A stretch of DNA of 64,000 bases, taken from assembly GCA_963805855.1 (NCBI GenBank), contig CAWDVW010000005.1, positions 1-64,000 of the forward strand. The letters run 5' to 3'. The notes below the pieces were generated by a model. That model was given only the letters and a program-made list of their open reading frames with translations. It searched no databases and had not been told where the DNA came from. Both the position numbers and the translations under genes were made by a program. Positions 1 through 33,439 of this stretch are shown piece after piece (position 1 is the stretch's first letter; each line of letters begins with the position of its first letter). This DNA is from Candidatus Dadabacteria bacterium. GTDB lineage: Bacteria > Desulfobacterota_D > UBA1144 > Nemesobacterales > CSP1-2.

Positions 1-1974
1 CTTTCTCTCTTCGACAGCTCTTTCTAAATCCTGAGCCGTTATTTCTACAGTTCTATTTTCTGCCAAGGCTCTCATAATGAGGTCTTGTAGATTAACCCCT
101 TCTAAAACAAAACCAACGATCTCTGAAATCTTTCCTCCCAGATGTTTTTCTATGATTGCTACTTTCTGCATCAGTCTTGCAAGAATTTGGCCTTCCCTAG
201 TATCTGTAACAAAAAGGTTGTGTACTTTTACATCCCTTTTCTGTCCATAGCGATGAAGCCTTCCAATCCTCTGGTCAATGCGGTTGGGATTCCAGGGAAG
301 ATCATAGTTGACCATTATGTGACAGAATTGAAGATTAATTCCCTCCCCAGCAGCGTCGGTTGCTACCATAAGGTTAAAGGAAGGAGAGTGGAAGTGTTCT
401 TCCGCTTCTCTTCTTGCGCCCATTTCCATTTCCCCATGTATTACCAAGGGATTATAGCCACGATCTTTTAAAATCGTGATTATATAGTCAAGGGTATCCC
501 TATACTCTGTAAAAATAAGAATCTTCTCCTTTGGGTCTTTTTTGAGAATACCATCAATAAACTCTAAAAGAGCCTCCCCTTTTGAATCTATGGTGATTTC
601 TTCTGAATACTTCACTAGGGTTTTAAGTACACTGATTTCCTTTTGTAGTTCTTCAGGGGTTGTAGAAAGGCTTAAAACTTCAAGCCGTTTTTCAAAACGC
701 CCTCTTTCCCAGTCATCCATCGAATCCGGGTCTTCAAAGTAATCACGCAGCCTTCCTACTTCTTCCTTGGCAAGTGGAATAACCCCTTTCACAAGGTTAG
801 TTAGCCTATTTTTGAGGGAGGATCTAATGGCAGCAACTGAAGATACCATCCTTTTTTGCAAAAGCACCATGGCAAAACCCGACAACTCTGTTATTTTGCA
901 TTTTGGCAAGATTATAGAATTCCTGTACATAGGAAGTTACAGCATCATATAGTATTTTCTCTTTATCACTGTAAGTTAATTGGTATAGTGACTACCTCTC
1001 TTGGACGGAATACTGGTTTTCCCTGAGCATCTATGATGCCATCCTTTCCCCTTCGGATCATGATGTTATTGAGCTTATCAGAGACGATTTTACTTTCATT
1101 CTCAAAAATGTAGGGATCAATAAGTGTAAGAAGGCTATAAAAGGCGAATGGATCCCCTTTGTGTGGGGTAGCGGTGAGAAGGATAAGGGATTCTGTTTTA
1201 TCATAGAGAGACTGGGCTAGTTTGAATCTCAGAGAGCGTTCGATTTTATTTCCGTATTTGGTGGCGGAGAGTTTATGGGCTTCGTCAAAAATAATGACGT
1301 CCCAATTTGTTCTCTCTAACTCATTTAAAATATCTTCTCTTTTAACATAATCCAAGGAGGCGATAATCTTTTGATTAACCTCCCAAACATTAGCATCCTT
1401 TGGAAGGGATTGTCTCAGCGCTTCAATATAAGCTGAGTTATAAATGATAAAATTTTCGTCAAACCTTTCCCGTAATTCTCTTTGCCATTGGAAACAAAGG
1501 GGTGCGGGGACAACGATGAGTATCCTTTTCGCAAATCCTCTAAGAGAAAGTTCCTTTAGGAGCATCCCTGTTTCAATTGTTTTCCCTAAACCTACGTCAT
1601 CAGCAATAAGGATTCTATTCTTATAGGTATTGAGGGCTTTATACACTGCATCCACCTGATAAGGCTCAAGATTTGTCCTTGTGAAAGACAGGGAGAGAAG
1701 ATGATCGTAGGCATAAGCCAATGAGAGGCGAATAGCCTCATAGTGCAAGTCAAAATGAGAGTGCGAATCAAAAATATTGTTTTGTAGTTGTTCCAAGGGA
1801 GAGAGTAATTTGTCTATCTTGGTAGGTGGAGAAACAAAATCCTTTGCTGGTCCCTCTTCAAATGCAACTTTAATAATCGAGGCAGTTCCTCTATCCACGA
1901 GTCCTTATAATTTCACCAATTTTATCTCCAACCCTTACCTTATCACCGATTGTAAACTCAGTATGTAGCTGCAT
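1..1974 (-). pseudogene. SNF2/RapA-like SF2 helicase, broken by three single-base insertions (or sequencing errors); runs off the window start
   Basis: ORF 966-1898 has ILIADDVGLGKT (Walker A), IIFDEAH and LTATP. Manual translation finds an upstream piece from ATG 1974 (MQLHTEFTIGDKVRVGDKIGEII), a middle piece 973-878 (YSDKEKILYDAVTSYVQEFY), and an open frame 873-1 with KILIFTEYRDT and ATDAAGEGINLQFCHIMVNYDLPWNPNRIDQRIGRLHRYGQ. Extra bases lie at about 1905, 974-977 and 874-877. Confidence 0.85.
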
Positions 1975-2238
1975 AACGACTCTAAACGCTTAAATTATCA
2001 ATGCTTTCATCAAGTTATCTAATAATACATTATGCCTTTGATGAACACCAAACATCGCTTTAAGACCGATTATGTCTCTATATAAGGATAATTCTCTGGG
2101 GCCACCTTGAATAAATGATTTATTTTTCTAGTTGTTCTTCTGTCCCTCGGTTCTTCTCAATCGCCTTTGGCACTTTTCTCATCAAGAAGTTCTGCTTTCT
2201 TGTCGCCTTTTTTTTTCATTATCAATTAGGAGATGAGT

Positions 2239-2264
2239 GGAGGACTAAAGTCCTCCGCTACATG
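2239..2264 (-). repeat. GTAG-type REP-like palindrome
   Basis: GGAGGACTAAAGTCCTCCGCTACATG is the exact reverse complement of 46883-46908. Confidence 0.8.
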
Positions 2265-3125
2265 ACTATTTGCGGCTTTTTAGAGAAGGGTTGAAACATA
2301 AGAAAAACCGATCTACAAGGGACAGTACTCTTAACTTACTCAATCATGGAGGGAGATGGCGGACTGACTTTGCTTTTTGAATATCAGTTCGAAGTTGGAA
2401 ATTGGCAAAGCTATAATCGCAAATGTAATCATTTTTTCAGAAGCTTTTCTAGTGTTTTTCCATTCTTCATAATAAAGATTATAAATTCAAAAATCGATTT
2501 CTTGAAGCATCTAAGCGAGGACAGCCCTTACGATATCAATTTCTAATCTTTATAGAGGATTCCCATAAATTATCCCGGTTCGGCAACTATGACCTTACGC
2601 ATTCTGATTCGCCTTGAAAATGAGCTGGGACTCTTGACATCTACTTCAATGGTCATAACTTTAAGGGGACGCAACCCTTTAAGGATATTTATGGTGCTAA
2701 TCTTTATCGAGATGCCCATAAAAAAACAACGGTTCAAGCCAACTATTGACAACCGTATTAACTTATTTTTGTTCTTCCGGTCGTAATTTGAATACCTTTA
2801 TTAGTTTGCTTTTCAGTAGGCTCTCCCTTCTTGCCCTCTTTCTCTTCGTGGAGACACCGTAGTTCTTCAACAATTGCGATATCAGCTTTGGGTAACACAT
2901 TGGATTGAAGCCTTCATTATATTACAGAACTGAGAAATTTGGAATTGGCCAATACCTGTGAGAGTCACGATAGATCCTTTGTAAAAAAATGGGCATCGGG
3001 GACAGCTCTTAGCCAAGCACCTAACGTGTACGGTTCAAGGCGGACCCTAATCTCTCTTGTTTAGGAAATTAGCTCTTAACCGGGCTTGACAACTGGGAAG
3101 CAGTACATTCTCACTAGATAATCCC

Positions 3126-4084
3126 TTAGAATCCGACGAACCTTCCCTTTTTCAATATTAGCTCATCATCCACATAGACAGATGGATTCATAATAACGCC
3201 GTCTAAATGACTCGCAACCTTTACAAATCCTCCCATGCTTTTATTATCGCCAAAAGCTATATGTACAGTACCAATGGCCTTTTCATCCTCGAGTACACTA
3301 CCTGTTATTCGTGCCTTGTCGTTAGTTCCTATTCCGAGCTCAGCTAAATTAAACGCTAGCTTACCCAATGGCTTCATTATCGATAAAAGTTTTTTTGCGC
3401 CGTCCGCTCCGTCTATTCGTGAAGCAAATCCATCGATTACTTCGACCTTAATTATTTCATCTCGGAGTTTTCCAACTCCTGCCATAGACCCGTCAAAAAC
3501 AATTACGCCAACTGACTTGCCTTCTACTGGAGATATGTAACCCTCGCCAGCGGGTAGATTGCTGAAATCACCCGAATTGTGGTTAAGTCCAGTATCGGCA
3601 AGTCCGACCCTACCATCAATTGGCAACGCAACATCAGTGCCGCGGTCTGTTGTTATCCTAACGATACTGCCATCATGAAGAATATCGGCAATCTTTCTGC
3701 TTCTCTCAGCAATCTTATAATAGTCCGCACTAAGGGTCCTAATCATCGTTTCTTCGGTAATCCCCGGAAGCGTCGCAATCCTCACACCTTTACCACTTGC
3801 CTCGCGCCTAGCGTCAGTGTGACTGAGTGACATTGAAGTGGGTATCAAACGACATCTACGATTTTCATCAGTTCTGCTACAGCTGGCGGCGGCTCTTCAC
3901 CGTTAGATCGCCTTGGTATTATCTCAGTGATTATGGCTTCTGCTGCTAGTTGTTTGGAGGCTTCCCAAAGCGCATAGCCTATTTTTCTCAAAGGCTCGTC
4001 GGTTAAAATGAGTACTTTCTCATCTTGTTTTATTGCCATACAGTCTCTGGCAGCGATTAAAGCTGCGATCCTCATTTCATCCAT
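3126..4084 (-). CDS. Aminopeptidase (M29-like), split by a 1-nt deletion at about 3847
   Basis: ORFs 3845-4084 and 3126-3848 join as VDVV-LIPTSMSLSH if one T is added to the TTT run. Motifs NLPAGE, AELGIGTN, EDEKAIGTVHIAFG and HLD are present. Confidence 0.8.
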
Positions 4085-16122: not shown

Positions 16123-17085
16123 ATGAAAGAAATTAATCCATTCAAGTTACTCAAAGAAGAGATGGACAAACTCGTTATAGGACATGAAGATGTCAAAATG
16201 TCCTTGCTATTAGGTGTCCTATCAAGAGAGCATATATACATCGAAGGTCCCCCAGGTACTGCCAAAACAATGCTTGCCGAAATTATATCGAAGGCGGCTC
16301 ATTTGAAGTTCTTCTTCTACCAGTTGCACAGGGATACCAGACTTTCGGAACTCGTAGGTGATTTGGTTATTTCAAAAGAGACAGTAGATACTGGCGAATT
16401 GATTAAGCAAAAAATTGTAAAGGGTGGTATTCTAACCTCGGAAATTTGTCTTCTTGATGATATTTCTCGTGCCCCAGGTGAATCGTTAAATGTTTTACTA
16501 AGAATCCTGAATGAGAGAAAATTCCTTCAAGAGACTATTCCTCTTCTTACAGCTATTGCTACAAGCAACCCAACCGCTGATGAATATTATAACGAGCCGC
16601 TTGACCCAGCTAATCTAGATCGTTTTGTCCTCCAGATAAACGCTCAAGGGCTTTCTTACGGCAAGAAGTGGAATGAAGCAAAAGAAGTTATAAAGCTATA
16701 TACCGAACGTCCATTAGATTATGAAGTGCCGACAAGGGTGTCTAAGGAGGTCTTTGATGAATACTATCAAAGGCTTAATACAGTAGTCATTCCATCAGAA
16801 GTACAAGATGGACTCGCAAACTTTGTTACAACACTTATTGAAGATTATGGTCTAAATGAATCTAATTCGCTGATCTCTGACAGGACATTTTTCGTAAAAT
16901 CGCTCAAGATAATTAGATCCCACGCCCTCATCAATAACAGGGAAACCTGTAGTCTGGAAGACCTCATGGCCCTCAAATATATGACCGCATTTCGTCTACC
17001 TGAGGAAATATTTAAGAAAATCGAAGAAATCATTGAAGATATAGTCTCAAAAAAAAAACACCCAAGGATACAACAAGCAAATTAG
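16123..17085 (+). CDS. MoxR/RavA-family AAA+ ATPase (short, zero-frame product)
   Basis: IEGPPGTAKT, LLDDISRA (Walker B variant), LLRILNERKF, ATSN, LDRF, ISDR. Confidence 0.88.
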   Translation: MKEINPFKLLKEEMDKLVIGHEDVKMSLLLGVLSREHIYIEGPPGTAKTMLAEIISKAAHLKFFFYQLHRDTRLSELVGDLVISKETVDTGELIKQKIVKGGILTSEICLLDDISRAPGESLNVLLRILNERKFLQETIPLLTAIATSNPTADEYYNEPLDPANLDRFVLQINAQGLSYGKKWNEAKEVIKLYTERPLDYEVPTRVSKEVFDEYYQRLNTVVIPSEVQDGLANFVTTLIEDYGLNESNSLISDRTFFVKSLKIIRSHALINNRETCSLEDLMALKYMTAFRLPEEIFKKIEEIIEDIVSKKKHPRIQQAN

Positions 17086-18230
17086 AACCGCAGACATCTG
17101 AATTTGATCAGGATCTACCAGGAGATCAGCCAAGAGAATCTCCTGACCAAGAGCAAAATAAACAAAAGGACCAACTTTCAGAAGCCCGAAAGACATTTCT
17201 TCAAGCCCTAAAAGAACTGAAAGATAATATCCAGAAGGAAAGCGCCAGCGGTGCCCCCCCTTCAGATCAAAACCTTCCAGATGAAAGTAGTGGACACGAA
17301 AGCGGGATCGAAGACTCGAGTGATGACCGTGTGCTGCCGTTTTCAGAAAAGGTTTACGCAAGTAAATCTCCCCGCCCAGGGAATGAAGAAGAATACTGGA
17401 TTGATGGTAAAAAAATCTATTCGAGTGCCGACAATGTCAAGATAATCATGAAGGTTCTTGAGGGGAACATCCAGAGGAGCATGGCATTAGACGCTCCTCA
17501 TCCAGGCGGGTTACCCAGAAGATGGAAGAAAATGAACTACTTTGAGGAAATGGAAGACGTTGATCTATTTGAAGGAATTTTCTGGGCTGAACACACAACG
17601 CCGACGCTTCCAAGGGTTCATAAACGGGAAAAGGAAATCATGGGGGGGGAGATCGCAATTCTGAGAGATGTCAGTACCTCAATGATGGGTGTTTATAGTG
17701 AGTGGTCTTCCTCGGTAGTCCGAGGAGTGATTGAGCTGGCAAGGATCAAGAAGATGAAGGTTGGTTATATCGAATTCAATCACCGTTCCTACATGTACAA
17801 GCGAAACGCGAAATTCTTTACAAGAGATTACAACTGGATGATGGAACTCGCCTCGAAGAACGAGTGCTCAGGCAATACAAATTATGAAGATGCATTAAAG
17901 GGGGCACTGTCCGAATTCAAAGGCAGAGGACTCAGAAATAAACATATTCTTTTTATAACAGATGGTATTCCCACTTCAGGTGATTGCGAGGTTCCCAATG
18001 AAAGAACGAGGGCAAAAAAACTTGGAGTCCGCATTCACTCTATATTTATAGGTTCTAAGAATTATCCAAAGATACTTGAGCGGATCTCTACTGAAACAAG
18101 TGGAACTCAGTTTATCGCATCACGTGAAAGAGACGGTCTCATAAAAATAGAAAGAAAAGAAAAGAAATACTTTGCGCCTAAGACCGAAAAACAGCATATA
18201 GATCCTTTTACTAAGGCGTTTTCCCGATAG
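17049..18230 (+). CDS. Acidic linker + von Willebrand factor A domain in the -1 frame (likely C-terminal extension of the AAA+ protein)
   Basis: The frame is open from 17037 to 18230 and its first possible start is GTG 17331, without a clear SD. MIDAS motifs DVSTSM, GNTNY and FITDG are present. Confidence 0.8.
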   Translation, partial: KKKTPKDTTSKLEPQTSEFDQDLPGDQPRESPDQEQNKQKDQLSEARKTFLQALKELKDNIQKESASGAPPSDQNLPDESSGHESGIEDSSDDRVLPFSEKVYASKSPRPGNEEEYWIDGKKIYSSADNVKIIMKVLEGNIQRSMALDAPHPGGLPRRWKKMNYFEEMEDVDLFEGIFWAEHTTPTLPRVHKREKEIMGGEIAILRDVSTSMMGVYSEWSSSVVRGVIELARIKKMKVGYIEFNHRSYMYKRNAKFFTRDYNWMMELASKNECSGNTNYEDALKGALSEFKGRGLRNKHILFITDGIPTSGDCEVPNERTRAKKLGVRIHSIFIGSKNYPKILERISTETSGTQFIASRERDGLIKIERKEKKYFAPKTEKQHIDPFTKAFSR

Positions 18231-19233
18231 TTCCCGATCGCTTTTGATATTTGTGCACCGCCTTGACATGATCCCTGTAATTTGTCGAAAACTCGTGTCC
18301 TCCTTCGCCGTTTGCTACAAAGTACAGATAATTGAAATCGGCTGGATGTAAAGCTGCTTCGAGCGATGCTTTTCCCGGGTTTGCTATTGGCCCCGGGGGA
18401 AGACCGGAGATTAGATAAGTATTGTAGTTTGATTTCATTTTCAATTTTTCCCTCGTTAGATCTCCATCGAAATTGTTGCCCAATGCGTATATCACGGTAG
18501 GATCGCTCTCTAGACGCATACCTAGTCTTAGCCTATTATGAAATACCTCCGATATCAAATTTCTTTCTGACGGATCCCCAGTTTCCTTCTCGATGATTGA
18601 TGCCAATGTTACTATCTCCTGATCACTAAGACTTATTCCATCTCGGCTGCTCTTAAGCGAATTCCATACACTCTTGAATCTTGACGTCATCATATTTATA
18701 AGCTCTTCAGCGGTGACACCCTTTTTGTAATAATAGGTTTCAGGGAAAAGATAGCCTTCAAAGCTAGTTGATGGTTTTCCAATAAATTCCGTCGCAAGAT
18801 CAGCTCTTCTGGCCTTCTCAATGAATTCTTCACTGGAAACGACTCCCTTTGTCTCGAGGAGATCCGCTATCTCATAAATATTGAGTCCTTCCGGTATGGT
18901 TATTTTCCTCACTATTACATCGCCACGCACTATTTTTTCAATTACATCCGATACCGATTCTCCCGGACTAAATTCGTACTCCCCGGCTTGCAACCTATTC
19001 TGTTTCCCTTTGAACATGACGAACAGGATGAGGAACTTATCGCTTTTCACAACTCCACATTCTTCAAGCTTAGCCGCTATTTCACGTAGTCCCATCCCTC
19101 GCGATATTTCAAAAATCACTTTCTTAGTATTGGACGGAAGGAAATAGTTAAAATAGACAAAGCACACAGAAGGTATTAACAATAAAACTAACGCCAACGA
19201 TATTATGACTAATCTATTATTCAGAAACTTCAT
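18211..19233 (-). CDS. mltG: Endolytic murein transglycosylase
   Basis: N-terminal TM, AGEY, TIPEG, EGYLFPETY, LASIIEKET, GLPPGPIANPG, YLYFVA. Confidence 0.95.
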   Translation of the reverse strand: MKFLNNRLVIISLALVLLLIPSVCFVYFNYFLPSNTKKVIFEISRGMGLREIAAKLEECGVVKSDKFLILFVMFKGKQNRLQAGEYEFSPGESVSDVIEKIVRGDVIVRKITIPEGLNIYEIADLLETKGVVSSEEFIEKARRADLATEFIGKPSTSFEGYLFPETYYYKKGVTAEELINMMTSRFKSVWNSLKSSRDGISLSDQEIVTLASIIEKETGDPSERNLISEVFHNRLRLGMRLESDPTVIYALGNNFDGDLTREKLKMKSNYNTYLISGLPPGPIANPGKASLEAALHPADFNYLYFVANGEGGHEFSTNYRDHVKAVHKYQKRSGTIGKTP

Positions 19234-19250
19234 TTCGAAGATTCATTCGG

Positions 19251-20408
19251 TTAAATTAATTCAGACTTTTCTTTCAAAATCACAACCAAATCATCCCTGT
19301 GAATTATTTCGTCGCCATACTTATATCCCAGTATGCTCTCAATACTGGTTGATTTAGCGCCAAGTATCTTTCTTATCTCGTCAGAGCCGTAACTGGCAAG
19401 CCCCCTAGCAATTTCAGATCCATTTTCATCTATACATCTCACCGACTCACCCAATTCAAAATTGCCTTTAACCCCTATGATCCCGGATGGAAGCAGACTT
19501 TTCCCCAGGGAGGCAATGGCCCTTTTTGCCCCATTATCTATTATTAAATCTCCAGATGGCTTAAGCGTAAATGCTATCCAATGCTTTCTCCCTCTAATTC
19601 TCTCGTTAGATGGTATAAAGAGCGTGCCAATCATCGCACCCGAAAATATATTCGCCAGAGCAGACTGCCTCTTGCCATTTGCTATTATCGTAGGAACTCC
19701 AAAGGCGGCGGCCGCCTTGGCTGCCTCGATCTTCGTTTTCATACCTCCTGTTGTTGTCTTTCCATAAGTCTCACCTGCCATTTTTTGAATTTTCATGTCT
19801 ATTTCATTTATTACGGAAATGAATTCGGCATCTCTGTGATTTCGAGGATCATTTGTATATAGTCCATCAATATTTGTAAGAAGAACTAAAAGATCGGCCT
19901 CTATCAGACTTGTTACAAGTGCTGCAAGATTATCGTTGTCCCCAAACATAATTTCTTCTACAGCCACTGTATCGTTTTCATTAATAATAGGGATAATTCC
20001 GATTCTTAACAGCGTAAGAAGGGTTTTTCTCGCATTCAAAAATCTCCTTCTGTCAGAAAGTCCGTCATGGGTCAAGAGTATTTGGGCAACCCTCTCTCCA
20101 AATTCAGAAAAAGCGCGTTCATAATTCCACATCAAAGCGCTTTGTCCACATGCTGCGATAGCTTGCTTCATTGAAACATCCGTGGCTTTTTTCTTAAGGC
20201 CAAGCTTTTTCATTCCAGATGCTATTGCTCCAGAAGACACTACAACCGTTTCAATCTTTTTAGATTTTAATTTTGAAATGCCACTGGCAACCTCGTAAAA
20301 CGCAGAATCCTGTATCTCTCCGTTTTCGTCTGTGAGTACACTGCTACCGATCTTTATTACAACTCTCTTAATCTTCGAGATAAATGCTTTTCTGCTAGTC
20401 GTTTTCAT
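19251..20408 (-). CDS. proB: Glutamate 5-kinase with PUA domain
   Basis: VIKIGSS, VSSGAIA, INENDTV, FGDNDNLAA, TGGMKTK. Confidence 0.97.
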   Translation of the reverse strand: MKTTSRKAFISKIKRVVIKIGSSVLTDENGEIQDSAFYEVASGISKLKSKKIETVVVSSGAIASGMKKLGLKKKATDVSMKQAIAACGQSALMWNYERAFSEFGERVAQILLTHDGLSDRRRFLNARKTLLTLLRIGIIPIINENDTVAVEEIMFGDNDNLAALVTSLIEADLLVLLTNIDGLYTNDPRNHRDAEFISVINEIDMKIQKMAGETYGKTTTGGMKTKIEAAKAAAAFGVPTIIANGKRQSALANIFSGAMIGTLFIPSNERIRGRKHWIAFTLKPSGDLIIDNGAKRAIASLGKSLLPSGIIGVKGNFELGESVRCIDENGSEIARGLASYGSDEIRKILGAKSTSIESILGYKYGDEIIHRDDLVVILKEKSELI

Positions 20409-21905: not shown

Positions 21906-24356
21906 TCATTCCATTTCAATATTCTTATCCTCAGGTGGAACCTTTGCAACGGCAGCGACCTGTTCATCCGGCTTGAGGTCAATCAGCCTGAGCCCTTGCG
22001 TACCTCTGCCATAAACGCTTATATCCGAGGCTTTCAACCGAATAATTTTTCCAGCATGTGTGGTTATAAGAATGACTTGAGTATCACCGGTAACCTGAAA
22101 CGCACCTACAACTAGTCCATTTTTACCGGTTGTTTTTATCGTAATAACCCCCTTCCCCCCGCGCCCGGTCATCCGGTATTCAGAAACCGAGGTTCTTTTG
22201 CCATACCCCATCTCGGTCACGGTCAGAATCTGAGAATCCGGATTCTCGATAACCTCAAGGCTTACGACCTCGTCACCCCCATCAAGTCTTATGCCTATGA
22301 CTCCCGTAGCGTTTCTTCCCATATCCCTGACCTTTGTCTCACTAAATCTAATTGCCTGTCCCTTCCGGGTCGTGAGCAGAATTTCGTTGGTTCCGTCGGT
22401 CATCCTAGCACCGATTAATTCATCGCCTTCACGTATATTAATGGCCATTATTCCCCCGGCACGAGGATTGGAATAAGCCATGAGTTTTGTCTTCTTTACT
22501 ATCCCATTCTTCGTAGCCATGAGAAGAAATCTATCCTCCTTAAACTCTCTAACTGGAAGAACCGCGGCTACATTCTCGTTGGGTGAAAGATTTAGCAAAT
22601 TCACCATGGCTTTTCCCCTTGCAGTGGGTCCTGCCTCTGGAATTGAGTGAACTTTAAGCCAGTAACATCTACCAAGGTTAGTAAAAAAAAGAACGTAGTT
22701 GTGGTTTGAAGCAACGAAAACATTCTCAATAAAATCGGTCTCCTTCGTGCTCATCCCAGTTTTACCCTTACCCCCCCTCCTCTGGCTCCTGTAAACACTA
22801 AGCGGCGTATTCTTTATATATCCTTCGTGCGTAATTGTGACGACCATATCCTCGTCGGCGATAAGATCCTCCAAAGAAATCTCTTCCACACTTTCAAGGA
22901 TATCTGTTCTTCTGTCATCAGCGTAGCGATTCTTAATATCGGCGAGTTCATCCGTGATAATATTTAATACCAGCTGGTCACTACCCAGAATCTCTTTCAA
23001 CTCTTTAACGGTCTTTATTAAATCCTTCCTTTCTTCTACGATCTTCTCTCTCTCAAGCGCGGTTAACCTTTGAAGCCTCATTTCAAGAATTGCCTGGGCT
23101 TGGATGTCGGAAAGTTTAAGTCGCGTTACCAAGCCTTCTTTTGCCTCAGAAGGGCTTTGAGATTTTCTTATCAGGCTAATTATCTCATCCAGGTTATCGA
23201 GCGCAATCTTAAGTCCGTCTAGTATATGAAGCCTTTCTTCGGCCTTCCGTAATTCAAACTGAGTTCGCCTAGTTACAACCTCCTTTCTGTGTTCAATAAA
23301 CTGTCCGATTAGGTCTTTTAGGGGCAGTACCTTAGGCTGGTTCTTGACAAGCGCAAGCATTATAATCCCAAACGACGTATCCATGGGAGTATGCTTGTAA
23401 AGCTGATTCAATATTACCTCCGCATTCTCCCCGCGCTTAATCTCAATTACTACCCTGATCCCTTCTCTATCTGATTCATCACGTATGTCTGATATTCCCT
23501 TTATTTTTTCGTCTTTTACCAGCTCAGCTGCGCGTTCTATGAGCTTGGCTTTGTTTACCTGATAAGGGATTTCAGTAACAATAATCAATTCCCTGTCACC
23601 CTTTTTCTGCCTTTCAATAATAGCGCGTGCCCTGACCCTGATAATTCCTCTACCCGTACGGTAAGCTTCCCTGATAGGCTCTCTGCCACATATAAAACCG
23701 CTAGTCGGAAAGTCCGGTCCAGGTATATGTCGCATCAGCTCGTTAAGGGTGATATCAGGCTTCCTTATCTGTGCTACAATAGCGTCAATTAGCTCTCCCA
23801 AGTTATGCGGCGGGATGTTAGTCGACATACCTACAGCGATCCCGGAGGCGCCATTTAGCAATAGGTTCGGTATCTTTGATGGGAGGACAACCGGTTCCAT
23901 TGCTCCACCGTCATAGTTGGGAACAAAATCCACCGTCTCCTTATCCAGATCATCCAGCATTTCGCTAGCGATCCTCGCAAGCCTGACTTCCGTATATCTC
24001 ATCGCCGCCGGTGGATCGCCATCGATCGAGCCAAAATTCCCTTGACCATCGACCAATGGATAGCGCATTGAAAAATCCTGGGCCATCCTAACCAGCGAAT
24101 CATAGATTGCAGCATCCCCATGTGGATGATATTTACCCATCACGTCGCCGACTATTCGTGCTGACTTTTTGTAGGGTCTATTCCAGTGATTTCCCGCCTC
24201 GTGCATCCCGAATAGAATGCGCCTGTGGACTGGCTTAAGACCATCTCTGGCATCCGGAAGCGCGCGCCCGATTATGACGCTCATCGAATAGCTGAGATAC
24301 GATTCCTTCATCTCATCTTCGATGTTTACAGGCAATATCTTTGATGCAATCGTCAC
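21906..24356 (-). CDS. gyrA: DNA gyrase subunit A
   Basis: [15 protein letters not shown], GyrA box QRRGGKG, C-terminal beta-pinwheel repeats. Confidence 0.98.
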
Positions 24357-31273: not shown

Positions 31274-33439
31274 ATGCAGGAATCAACAAAAAAAACCATC
31301 AAAGAAATAATTCGAGACCTTCCGCCATTGATAAGAGAAGAGCTTGATTATCTCGAGAAGAAAGTTCGTGAATATCAGGCCGGCATGCTAGGTGAGATTA
31401 AATTTCAAAAGATCCGTCTGCAAATGGGGACTTATGCTCAAAGGCAGAATGGCGTCCAAATGCAAAGAATCAAGATCCCTTATGGAGGGCTTACTTCTCA
31501 TCAACTTAGAAGATTGGCAGATGTGACCGAAAAATACGCTAGCGGGTTCATGCATCTAACCACCAGACAGGATGTGCAGATTTATTACGTAAAACTAGAC
31601 ACAGTTCCAAATATGATGAGGGAACTTGCTGATGCCGGTATTACAACACGTGAAGCCTGTGGAAATACTGTAAGGAATGTAACGGCATGTCACGAATCAG
31701 GTATTTCAGCAACAGAAACATTTGATGTAACACCTTATACCGACGCCTTTGTGCAGTTCATGTTAAGAAATCCGATCTGTCAGAATATGGGACGCAAATT
31801 TAAGGTAGCCTTCGAGGGTTGTTCCGATAAAGACCATGCCGGCGTCAGGATTCATGACCTCGGTTTTCGTGCCAGAGTAAAGGAAATTGACGGACAGTTA
31901 AAGCGAGGATTTCAGCTTTATGTCGGGGGTGGTCTAGGAGCATCTCCATCCCTAGGACATCTTTGGAGTGACTTCATACCGGTTGAAGAAATGCTCCCGC
32001 TCTCAGCGTCCATCATACGAATCTTTGACCGTTACGGAGAACGAAAGGTTCGCATGAAAGCCCGCATGAAGTTTCTGATAAGGAAGCTGGGATTTGATGA
32101 GTTTCGGAAGCGTGTCGAAGAAGAAAGGGCTCAACTGAAAGTAGATCCATCGTGGAATGATTATCTCAAGACAATTGATGAACACGAAAAAGCCCCGGAT
32201 AGATTTACGGATATACCCCCAGCATCGGAGGGAATCGAAAGCAACCCGGGTTACATAAAATGGGAAGAATCTTGCGTAGTACCCCACAGGGAAGATGGAT
32301 ATAGGATGGTGCATGTAAGAATAAAGCTAGGGGATATTGAATCTGAAAGAGCACGAAGGTTGGCAGATATAACCGAGATATTCTCCGGCGGGGAAATTCG
32401 TATTACGATTCAGCAAAACTTTGTCTTACGCTGGGTACCCGAGGATTGCCTACCGTCGCTTTATGCTGCCCTGAGGGAGGCAGATTTAACTTATCTGGGA
32501 GCCGATACCTTTGAGGATATAACTGCTTGCCCCGGCGCAGACACTTGCCGGCTGGGTATAACATCGGCGAAAGGACTCGCCACAAGGCTAAGCGACGGAA
32601 TGTCAAACGGTCTATCGGAATACAAGGAAATGGCAAAGGACTTGAAGATTAAGATATCCGGATGCCCAAATTCCTGTGCACAACATGTATCTGCAAATAT
32701 TGGTTTTCAGGGCGCATCCATAAATCATGAAGGGAGAACAGTTCCCGCAGAAATGGTTTGTGTAGGGGGCTCACTTTTAGGAGACGATACCCGGCTTGCC
32801 ATGCCGATCAGGAAGATTCCCACTCGGAATGCCCCTAAGGTGGTAAAAAAGCTGCTGGATTTACACAGGGATGAAAAAGATGGTGACGAGGACTTTGACA
32901 TGGTTATGCAAAGACTGGGAGCCGATCGGATAAAGAAAGAACTTGATGAATTTACATCTATTCCATCTTTTGAAGAAGACCCCGCGTTCTATCAGGATTG
33001 GGGACACGAGGAAGAAAAATTCGAAGTTCAACAGGGGGTCAAAGGGGAATGCGCGGGCGCGACTGTTGAGGAAAAGATCCCGACCTTTAAAGATGCTGAA
33101 AAACATTTAGAGAAAGCGCGCGCCTTTTTACACCACGGTGAATTAAAATCATCAATAATAGAATCGTACCATGCATGTTCAGCTACTGCTCATGTACCCT
33201 TGTACACAAAATTGGTCGACCCATTTACCGATGAACAAACAATATGGGAGTTTGAGAACATGCTTGTACGCACTGGAGAAGCAGACAGTAAATGGATTGA
33301 TATTGGTGCGCGCCTGAAGGAAAAACTCAACGTGGAACCCACAAAAGAAATCGCCGAGGAACTGTTGGCTGTAGCAAACGACATGCATGTGGAATGCCAA
33401 CAAATTAAGATGAATCTTACTCAGGCTAGAAAAACTTAG
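31274..33439 (+). CDS. Ferredoxin-type siroheme sulfite/nitrite reductase with C-terminal helical extension
   Basis: MQRIKIPYG, HLTTRQDVQ, EACGNTVRN, RKFK, ACPGADTC, SGCPNSC. Confidence 0.92.
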   Translation: MQESTKKTIKEIIRDLPPLIREELDYLEKKVREYQAGMLGEIKFQKIRLQMGTYAQRQNGVQMQRIKIPYGGLTSHQLRRLADVTEKYASGFMHLTTRQDVQIYYVKLDTVPNMMRELADAGITTREACGNTVRNVTACHESGISATETFDVTPYTDAFVQFMLRNPICQNMGRKFKVAFEGCSDKDHAGVRIHDLGFRARVKEIDGQLKRGFQLYVGGGLGASPSLGHLWSDFIPVEEMLPLSASIIRIFDRYGERKVRMKARMKFLIRKLGFDEFRKRVEEERAQLKVDPSWNDYLKTIDEHEKAPDRFTDIPPASEGIESNPGYIKWEESCVVPHREDGYRMVHVRIKLGDIESERARRLADITEIFSGGEIRITIQQNFVLRWVPEDCLPSLYAALREADLTYLGADTFEDITACPGADTCRLGITSAKGLATRLSDGMSNGLSEYKEMAKDLKIKISGCPNSCAQHVSANIGFQGASINHEGRTVPAEMVCVGGSLLGDDTRLAMPIRKIPTRNAPKVVKKLLDLHRDEKDGDEDFDMVMQRLGADRIKKELDEFTSIPSFEEDPAFYQDWGHEEEKFEVQQGVKGECAGATVEEKIPTFKDAEKHLEKARAFLHHGELKSSIIESYHACSATAHVPLYTKLVDPFTDEQTIWEFENMLVRTGEADSKWIDIGARLKEKLNVEPTKEIAEELLAVANDMHVECQQIKMNLTQARKT

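Follow-up and report, generated by a model that had tools for sequence, protein, structure and literature searches.

A conserved poly-A tract, and putative recoding site, between the ATPase and VWA parts of a MoxR-type gene in Candidatus Dadabacteria

The window analysed here comprises 64,000 nucleotides (positions 1 to 64,000 of the forward strand of contig CAWDVW010000005.1, assembly GCA_963805855.1, a Candidatus Dadabacteria bacterium, genome G000 below). It contains a gene for a MoxR/RavA-like AAA+ ATPase that runs, across a stretch of adenines, into a frame encoding a von Willebrand factor A (VWA) domain. From a comparison of its orthologs throughout the phylum we infer, with a probability of about 70%, that this stretch is a conserved poly-A recoding tract, by which a single MoxR-VWA gene would give rise both to the ATPase alone and to an ATPase-linker-VWA protein; the proposal includes slippage on the tract, two products and mixed rings of the two. 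As assembled, the zero-frame open reading frame (ORF; 16123-17085) encodes 320 amino acids and ends in ...SKKKHPRIQQAN*, and the -1 (fusion) frame is open from 17037 to 18230, with its stop codon at 18228-18230.

An ortholog search with the ATPase half (E ≤1e-60) detected the gene in 117 of 120 Candidatus Dadabacteria genomes; the MoxR-VWA gene is near-universal and single-copy in this phylum. The junction is readable in 114 of the 117 orthologs, which make up the census. Left out were those of G075 and G116, whose contigs end short of the junction, and that of G057 (L206, G057:C6:1-3300), whose multiple frame breaks split the gene into several frames with four in-frame TGA codons and an A9 run, as would result from assembly noise or from decay of the gene. 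In all 114 loci a run of A9 to A12 occupies the same codon position: 68 loci have A10, 31 A11, 14 A9 and one A12, and none has fewer than nine. A poly-A tract at the junction is thus found far beyond chance. With the ATPase half as reference, the VWA half lies in the -1 frame in 94/114 loci, in frame in 17/114 and in the +1 frame in 3/114. The frame state follows the clades, being -1 in 36/36 loci of family f8, in 17/18 of the marine family f9 and in most of f2. In the clade formed by f1 and f5, 15/16 loci are in frame, the window being the exception; L005 and L056 are also in frame. A FastTree tree requires at least seven changes of frame state, five of which concern single tips that are one A off their sisters (the window, L056, L055, L039 and L098). 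Among 29 loci with contig names of short-read type (MEGAHIT, SPAdes or similar; a heuristic assignment), 21 are -1, seven in frame and one +1. Because 21 of these 29 loci are -1, that state is, outside the window, not an artefact of long-read assembly.

The AAA+ half and the VWA half derive from a single ancestral gene. In the window, the first ATG, GTG or TTG of the fusion frame is a GTG at 17331, and there is no earlier start in the linker. Throughout the -1 loci the first possible start lies 4 to 131 codons past the run, and in 85/94 of them tblastn similarity in the fusion frame begins upstream of it. (A regular expression for the linker motif S-E-F-D missed 25/94 loci, and tblastn start positions were used instead.) In 51/94 -1 loci the fusion frame opens just 7-9 nucleotides before the end of the run, typically with TAA followed by A's, and therefore the shift must fall inside the run. 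The stop codon of the short frame follows 7-24 nucleotides past the run in 94/94 -1 loci, and 22-25 nucleotides past it in 16/17 in-frame loci.

Without any recoding, the tract would encode a conserved Lys-Lys-Lys patch, the in-frame loci would be ordinary genes, and the out-of-frame loci would be assembly errors or pairs of genes with internal initiation of the VWA part. The patch is indeed conserved in the protein, and QKKKL likewise occurs in P0003, a sister protein that is in frame; moreover, homopolymers are error-prone, and gene callers predict VWA-only proteins such as P0015 (343 amino acids) and P0016 (337 amino acids). Such an explanation conflicts with the prevalence of the -1 state, which comes with clade-specific run lengths and phases and includes the short-read-type assemblies, with the lack of a conserved start codon in the -1 loci, and with the homology upstream of the first start and the opening of the fusion frame within the run. 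The codons of the tract are difficult to reconcile with it as well: every Lys codon in the tract is AAA, compared with 55% of the Lys codons outside the run (3360/6103) and 49% in the in-frame loci (427/871). L022, which uses AAA for 6/53 Lys codons, still keeps A10. A sister lineage known from metagenomes (L195 and L196; 55% identity, 57% GC) likewise carries an A10 at this position, in frame, and fusion proteins from outside the phylum, at 33-45% identity, are devoid of the KKK patch. Selection would thus appear to act on the nucleotides of the tract, beyond Lys alone. The absence of recoding is strongly disfavoured and, in our estimation, very improbable.

Both halves of the protein are matched by Pfam families. 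In the first half these are bpMoxR (1e-20, 74.1 bits; cutoff 27), AAA_5 (1.6e-19, 70.8 bits; cutoff 22), AAA_3 (48.2 bits; cutoff 27) and AAA_lid_8 (1.1e-6, 28.8 bits; cutoff 22.8). In the second half VWA (2.9e-7), VWA_2 (3.7e-7) and VWA_3 all exceed their cutoffs, and VWA_CoxE gives a weak match (1.2e-4). The RavA equivalog model of NCBIfam matches the AAA+ and lid part only (3.5e-18; model positions 28-305 of 498), and since its score of 65.9 lies far under the cutoff of 681, the protein is not RavA itself. The nearest PDB sequences are MoxR-like 2r44 (3.2e-21) and RavA (4e-12). Foldseek with the predicted model likewise ranks 2r44 first (4e-19, TMt 0.70), followed by RavA and then by MCMs. 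The Walker A motif GPPGTAKT is present, with K48 invariant in the family alignments. Walker B reads LLDD family-wide, with D112 invariant and D113 nearly so in alignments of 10 and 24 members; as most AAA+ proteins have DE here, the catalytic glutamate seems to have been exchanged for Asp across the family. The metal-ion-dependent adhesion site (MIDAS) motif DxSxS takes the form DVSTS, of which D516, S518 and S520 are invariant in 24 sequences. AlphaFold, run on the A11 form with a 24-sequence alignment (mean predicted local distance difference test score, pLDDT, 74), gives a confident AAA+ module that ends with the helix 300-320, which carries the KKK patch. Residues 316-437 are disordered with one helix (pLDDT <50 at 316-332, 334-356 and 371-437), and the VWA fold follows. 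The poly-A tract hence falls where the last AAA+ lid helix reaches its C-terminus, directly before the disordered linker. The gene product is a MoxR/RavA-like AAA+ ATPase with a disordered acidic linker and a MIDAS-bearing VWA domain. This agrees with a preliminary description of the window, made from its letters alone, which had assigned the first half to the MoxR/RavA type of AAA+ ATPase and the second to a MIDAS-bearing VWA domain. The sequence features reported there (the A10 run, the zero-frame stop at 17085, the -1 stop at 17034-17036 and the positions of further homopolymers) are exactly as given, and the conserved poly-A run and -1 offset that it proposed to look for in relatives are present. 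Its central idea, a recoded MoxR-VWA protein outside the chelatases, is thereby upheld for the family.

For genome G000 itself the situation differs: A11 is likely the true or majority state, and the A10 of this assembly probably reflects an undercalled homopolymer or a minor variant. The evidence for A11 comes from Logan contigs of two salt-marsh DNA runs, X1 and X2 (library type not on record), that match the locus at ≥99%. In both, one additional A behind 17048 creates a single ORF of 702 amino acids, and no A10 contig was reported. The X1 contig (767 nucleotides, depth 8) bridges the run with one other mismatch; that of X2 (157 nucleotides, depth 3.5) extends only 14 nucleotides to the right of the run and is weak. 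G001, G002 and G007 have A11 in frame, the state seen in both genomes of the same genus. A cluster at 90% identity has 31 members; among the 15 listed, nine are of 702 amino acids, three of 689, 700 and 772, and two are fragments, and the 320-amino-acid form occurs on the window's own contig only. G000 is assembled in nine contigs, one of 1.09 megabases (Mb), sizes that suggest a long-read assembly prone to homopolymer undercalls. Conversely, A10 might be real in the window and reflect a recent or polymorphic change of a hypermutable tract (phase variation), in which case this strain would encode the short form and its neighbours the long one. The assembly does read A10, four further tip-level loci in the phylum are off by one, and in X2 no contig bridges the run with at least 31 nucleotides on both sides; a real A10 is also supported by the fact that long A runs mutate through slipped-strand mispairing. 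We nevertheless regard it as unlikely in view of the A11 contigs from both runs, the length of about 700 amino acids of the listed full-length cluster members, the large contigs of G000 and the frame states, which, unlike those of contingency loci, are stable over whole families. What the preliminary description proposed for this genome, products of 320 and about 702 amino acids in consequence of a -1 shift, is accordingly not supported: the contigs of two other runs show A11 and one ORF, an outcome that the description itself had named as refuting, and the whole f1 family clade is in frame. It had also cited further runs in the window that keep their genes in frame (C7 at 17254-17260, G8 at 17642-17649, A8 at 22683-22690 and A8 at 31288-31295) as an argument against homopolymer error, which is weak, as these runs are only 7-8 nucleotides long.

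In the mechanism that we propose for the family, RNA polymerase would slip on the A9-A12 run, so that some transcripts would gain or lose an A, and -1 ribosomal slippage on A_AAA_AAA/G might assist. The short product would be the ATPase only, of about 320 amino acids with an out-of-frame tail of 2-8 residues, and the long product an ATPase-linker-VWA protein of about 700. By virtue of their common AAA+ module the two could form mixed rings, with the VWA adaptor on only some of the subunits. In most lineages the DNA encodes the short form (-1), and a slip would be needed for the long form; in the window's family clade the DNA encodes the long form in frame, and a slip would give the short one. 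We favour slippage of RNA polymerase because the run is never shorter than nine, is kept in in-frame loci and is accompanied by no conserved structure or Shine-Dalgarno-like element. In 30 genus representatives, neither a conserved RNA structure (mean z +0.07 downstream, -0.54 upstream) nor a conserved Shine-Dalgarno-like stimulator was found in the flanks of the run. With A9-A12 in 114/114 loci, the homopolymer at the frame transition passes the slippage threshold of 'eight nucleotides or longer' stated in PMC3711429, where cassettes from chelatase frameshifted (fs) genes with 11, 9 and 7 A's yielded 63%, 40% and 10% shifted product in E. coli. A perfect hairpin of 10 base pairs with a 4-nucleotide loop was observed in L026 (G021), 36 to 7 nucleotides upstream of the A10 (fold z -4.6). 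It ends 6 nucleotides before the run and is lineage-specific, not conserved across family f8; other isolated lineage-specific hairpins occur.

Alternatively, transcription could be faithful and programmed -1 ribosomal frameshifting of tRNA-Lys on A_AAA_AAA or A_AAA_AAG could be the main mechanism, as in dnaX and as proposed for frameshifted chlD. An in-phase A_AAA_AAA or A_AAA_AAG heptamer is present in every locus, for all three codon phases seen, and the f2 and f9 loci read A_AAA_AAG; in addition, the chelatase precedent has been published as programmed frameshifting on A_AAA_AAR (PMC5009743; PMC9227772). For ribosomal frameshifting a heptamer would do, yet the run measures at least nine in all loci and is retained in full in the in-frame and +1 loci, the flanks of the 30 representatives offer no conserved downstream structure or upstream element, and the efficiency in the E. 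coli tests rises with the length of the A run, which is typical of homopolymer slippage (PMC3711429). We therefore consider ribosomal frameshifting rather unlikely as the main mechanism. Both mechanisms lead to the same junction peptide.

Several points weigh against the recoding tract proposed here or limit its scope. With a heptamer in every locus, transcriptional and ribosomal slippage are inseparable by sequence alone. All genomes are metagenome-assembled or single-amplified genomes, and relatives are not independent. The five off-by-one tips show that either the length of the tract or its assembly is unstable, and the three +1 loci would require a different slip (-1 or +2 nucleotides) for the fusion. 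A Leu/Ile-Glu pair conserved in the fusion frame (xTA GAR) could account for part of the conservation of the short-frame stop. In G000, A11 is based on contigs, and X1 is possibly the sample of origin. Finally, contigs from metatranscriptome libraries cover 16229-16468 and 16794-16944 (X17) and 17140-17366 (X18), and the run lies outside both; the coverage by X18 is compatible with a single transcript, DNA carry-over being possible as well.

Beyond a conserved recoding site, we tentatively suggest, at somewhat less than even odds, that the tract might work as an evolvable dial. The infidelity of RNA polymerase on A9-A12 would set the ratio of ATPase-only to ATPase-VWA subunits throughout the phylum, and lineages would retune it by tract length or by flipping the form encoded by default in the DNA (short and -1, or long and in frame), never losing the tract itself. 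If true, this would mean selection on the transcription error rate as an expression parameter in a housekeeping gene, one that is retained even in marine genomes of about 1 Mb. The retention in such small genomes points to a putative core role for the MoxR-VWA protein.

More distant relatives display other arrangements. In high-GC metagenome relatives (L197-L201, about 690-3430 and downstream), an in-frame ATPase-VWA paralogue, an ATPase-only gene and coxS-like and coxL-like genes stand in a row, and the end of the ATPase-only gene (...GEITA*) coincides exactly with the domain boundary described above; 'short plus long' is thus represented there by two genes. Homologues at about 40-46% identity also come from marine eukaryote transcriptomes (P0007, P0042, P0045 and P0166-P0168; for P0007 and its cluster the source given is MMETSP), and these have N-terminal extensions resembling organelle targeting peptides.

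The coordinates of the locus are compiled in Table 1. The number of promoter-like sites in the region, one of which is included, is not above the shuffled expectation. mltG-like and proB-like genes on the minus strand (window 18211-20408) lie convergent to the ATPase-VWA gene at its 3' end, and the stop region of mltG overlaps the VWA stop by about 20 nucleotides. In a neighbourhood comparison of 80 related loci there was no conserved operon partner and no hint of the protein's function: the upstream genes vary, and downstream, on the opposite strand, proB is found convergent in 69/80 and mltG in 54/80. A genome-wide homopolymer screen of G000, with 52 A/T runs of at least nine and none longer than ten, returned mostly ordinary gene junctions and gave no usable estimate of assembly error; it was not used as evidence. 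One A9 run (G000:C5:113924-113932) lies between an amidohydrolase-like frame of 428 codons and a frame of 373 codons offset by -1 (FVYGTL... plus a formylglutamate-amidohydrolase-like part). The pair may be two ordinary genes, with a plausible TTG start a few codons downstream.

Table 1. Features of the ATPase-VWA locus in the window
Feature	Position	Strand	Basis
Promoter-like site TTGAAA, 17-nucleotide spacer, TAATAT, about 37 nucleotides upstream of the start codon	16058..16086	+	consensus match only
AAA+ module, MoxR/RavA-like, as assembled (320 amino acids, zero frame)	16123..17085	+	Pfam, RavA model, nearest structures
Walker A GPPGTAKT	16246-16269	+	sequence
Walker B LLDD	16450-16461	+	sequence
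TGA, final stop of the -1 (fusion) frame before the tract	17034..17036	+	sequence
Conserved poly-A tract, putative slip site (A10 here; A11 in contigs of two other runs)	17049..17058	+	
Linker, acidic, Pro/Ser/Gln-rich, fusion frame	17059..17432	+	translation, predicted disordered except one helix
TAG closing the putative short (ATPase-only) product	17083..17085	+	sequence
Conserved pre-VWA element (HPGGLPRxW, LPR) and VWA domain	17433..18230	+	Pfam, alignment, model
MIDAS motif DVSTS	17667-17681	+	VWA domain

Frameshifted chlD, described as the 'magnesium chelatase' cluster of fs-genes (Antonov et al. 2013, PMC3711429; Kuznetsov et al. 2022, PMC9227772; reviewed by Atkins et al. 2016, PMC5009743), is the closest described case, and belongs to the sister chelatase branch. 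There, too, one gene comprises an AAA+ module, an acidic, Pro-rich linker and a VWA/MIDAS domain in this order. A poly-A site (A_AAA_AAR) marks the boundary between AAA+ and linker, with the downstream part in -1 (here in 94/114 loci), in-frame fusions exist among relatives, and a short AAA+ and a long AAA+-VWA subunit are proposed to arise from a single gene. In contrast, the AAA+ module here is of MoxR/RavA type, not of ChlI/BchI type, and the tract never falls below nine and is retained in in-frame lineages. We rejected the possibility of a chelatase subunit. The Pfam family Mg_chelatase scores 19.1 bits against a cutoff of 20.3 and covers residues 18-56 only (39 residues), an NCBIfam search of the protein returned no ChlD/BchD model at E ≤0.01, and no chelatase is among the PDB sequence matches or the listed fold matches. 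G000 (completeness 93.8%) furthermore contains no match to CobN/ChlH (PF02514), which was found in 5/14 control genomes.

MoxR-class AAA+ proteins work with VWA partners in the pairs RavA-ViaA, CbbQ-CbbO, NorQ-NorD and CoxD-CoxE. The protein described here resembles pairs of the RavA-ViaA type in combining a MoxR-class ATPase with a VWA/MIDAS adaptor, in its nearest structures, 2r44 and RavA, and in the weak match to VWA_CoxE. It differs from them in that one gene with a putative recoding tract takes the place of two genes, and from RavA in lacking the C-terminal domains of the latter. A role as CoxD/CoxE maturation factor of Mo-hydroxylases was considered and rejected, as G000 has no match to PF02738 (CoxL-type); linkage to coxS/coxL-type genes is seen only in the distant high-GC homologues L197-L201.

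A further parallel is dnaX, which yields tau and gamma; slippage on A runs occurs in Thermus dnaX and in poly-A tracts of endosymbionts. In dnaX, as proposed here, two products with a common N-terminal ATPase module derive from one gene with a slippery A-rich site, and the short form ends soon past the shift. In E. coli dnaX, however, the DNA encodes the long form, whereas here it mostly encodes the short one, and a Shine-Dalgarno-like element and a hairpin flank its heptamer, neither of which was found conserved in the 30 genus representatives here.

Our literature searches found no published account of this Dadabacteria MoxR-VWA recoding; the supplementary cluster tables of PMC3711429 lay outside the searches and may list a related cluster. 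New in the present analysis are the census of 114 of the 117 orthologs from 120 genomes, the in-frame clade that keeps both the tract and the short-frame stop, the sister lineage with the tract and the caution about the frame break of this assembly. To our knowledge, few cellular, non-mobile bacterial genes show conserved recoding, the short list being dnaX, prfB and chlD. A putative recoding site that all examined members of an uncultured phylum retain would be a clean addition to it. For annotation, the consequence is that in most Dadabacteria the locus is called as two genes or as a pseudogene, and that long-read assemblies can flip the apparent frame state, as is probably the case in G000. 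The in-frame clade, having kept the tract, would serve as a natural experiment on the need for the short form. After frameshifted chlD, the gene described here would be the second to supply both an AAA+ ring and its VWA-bearing subunit, and the two cases would suggest that MoxR- and chelatase-type machines generally require adaptor subunits in sub-stoichiometric amounts.

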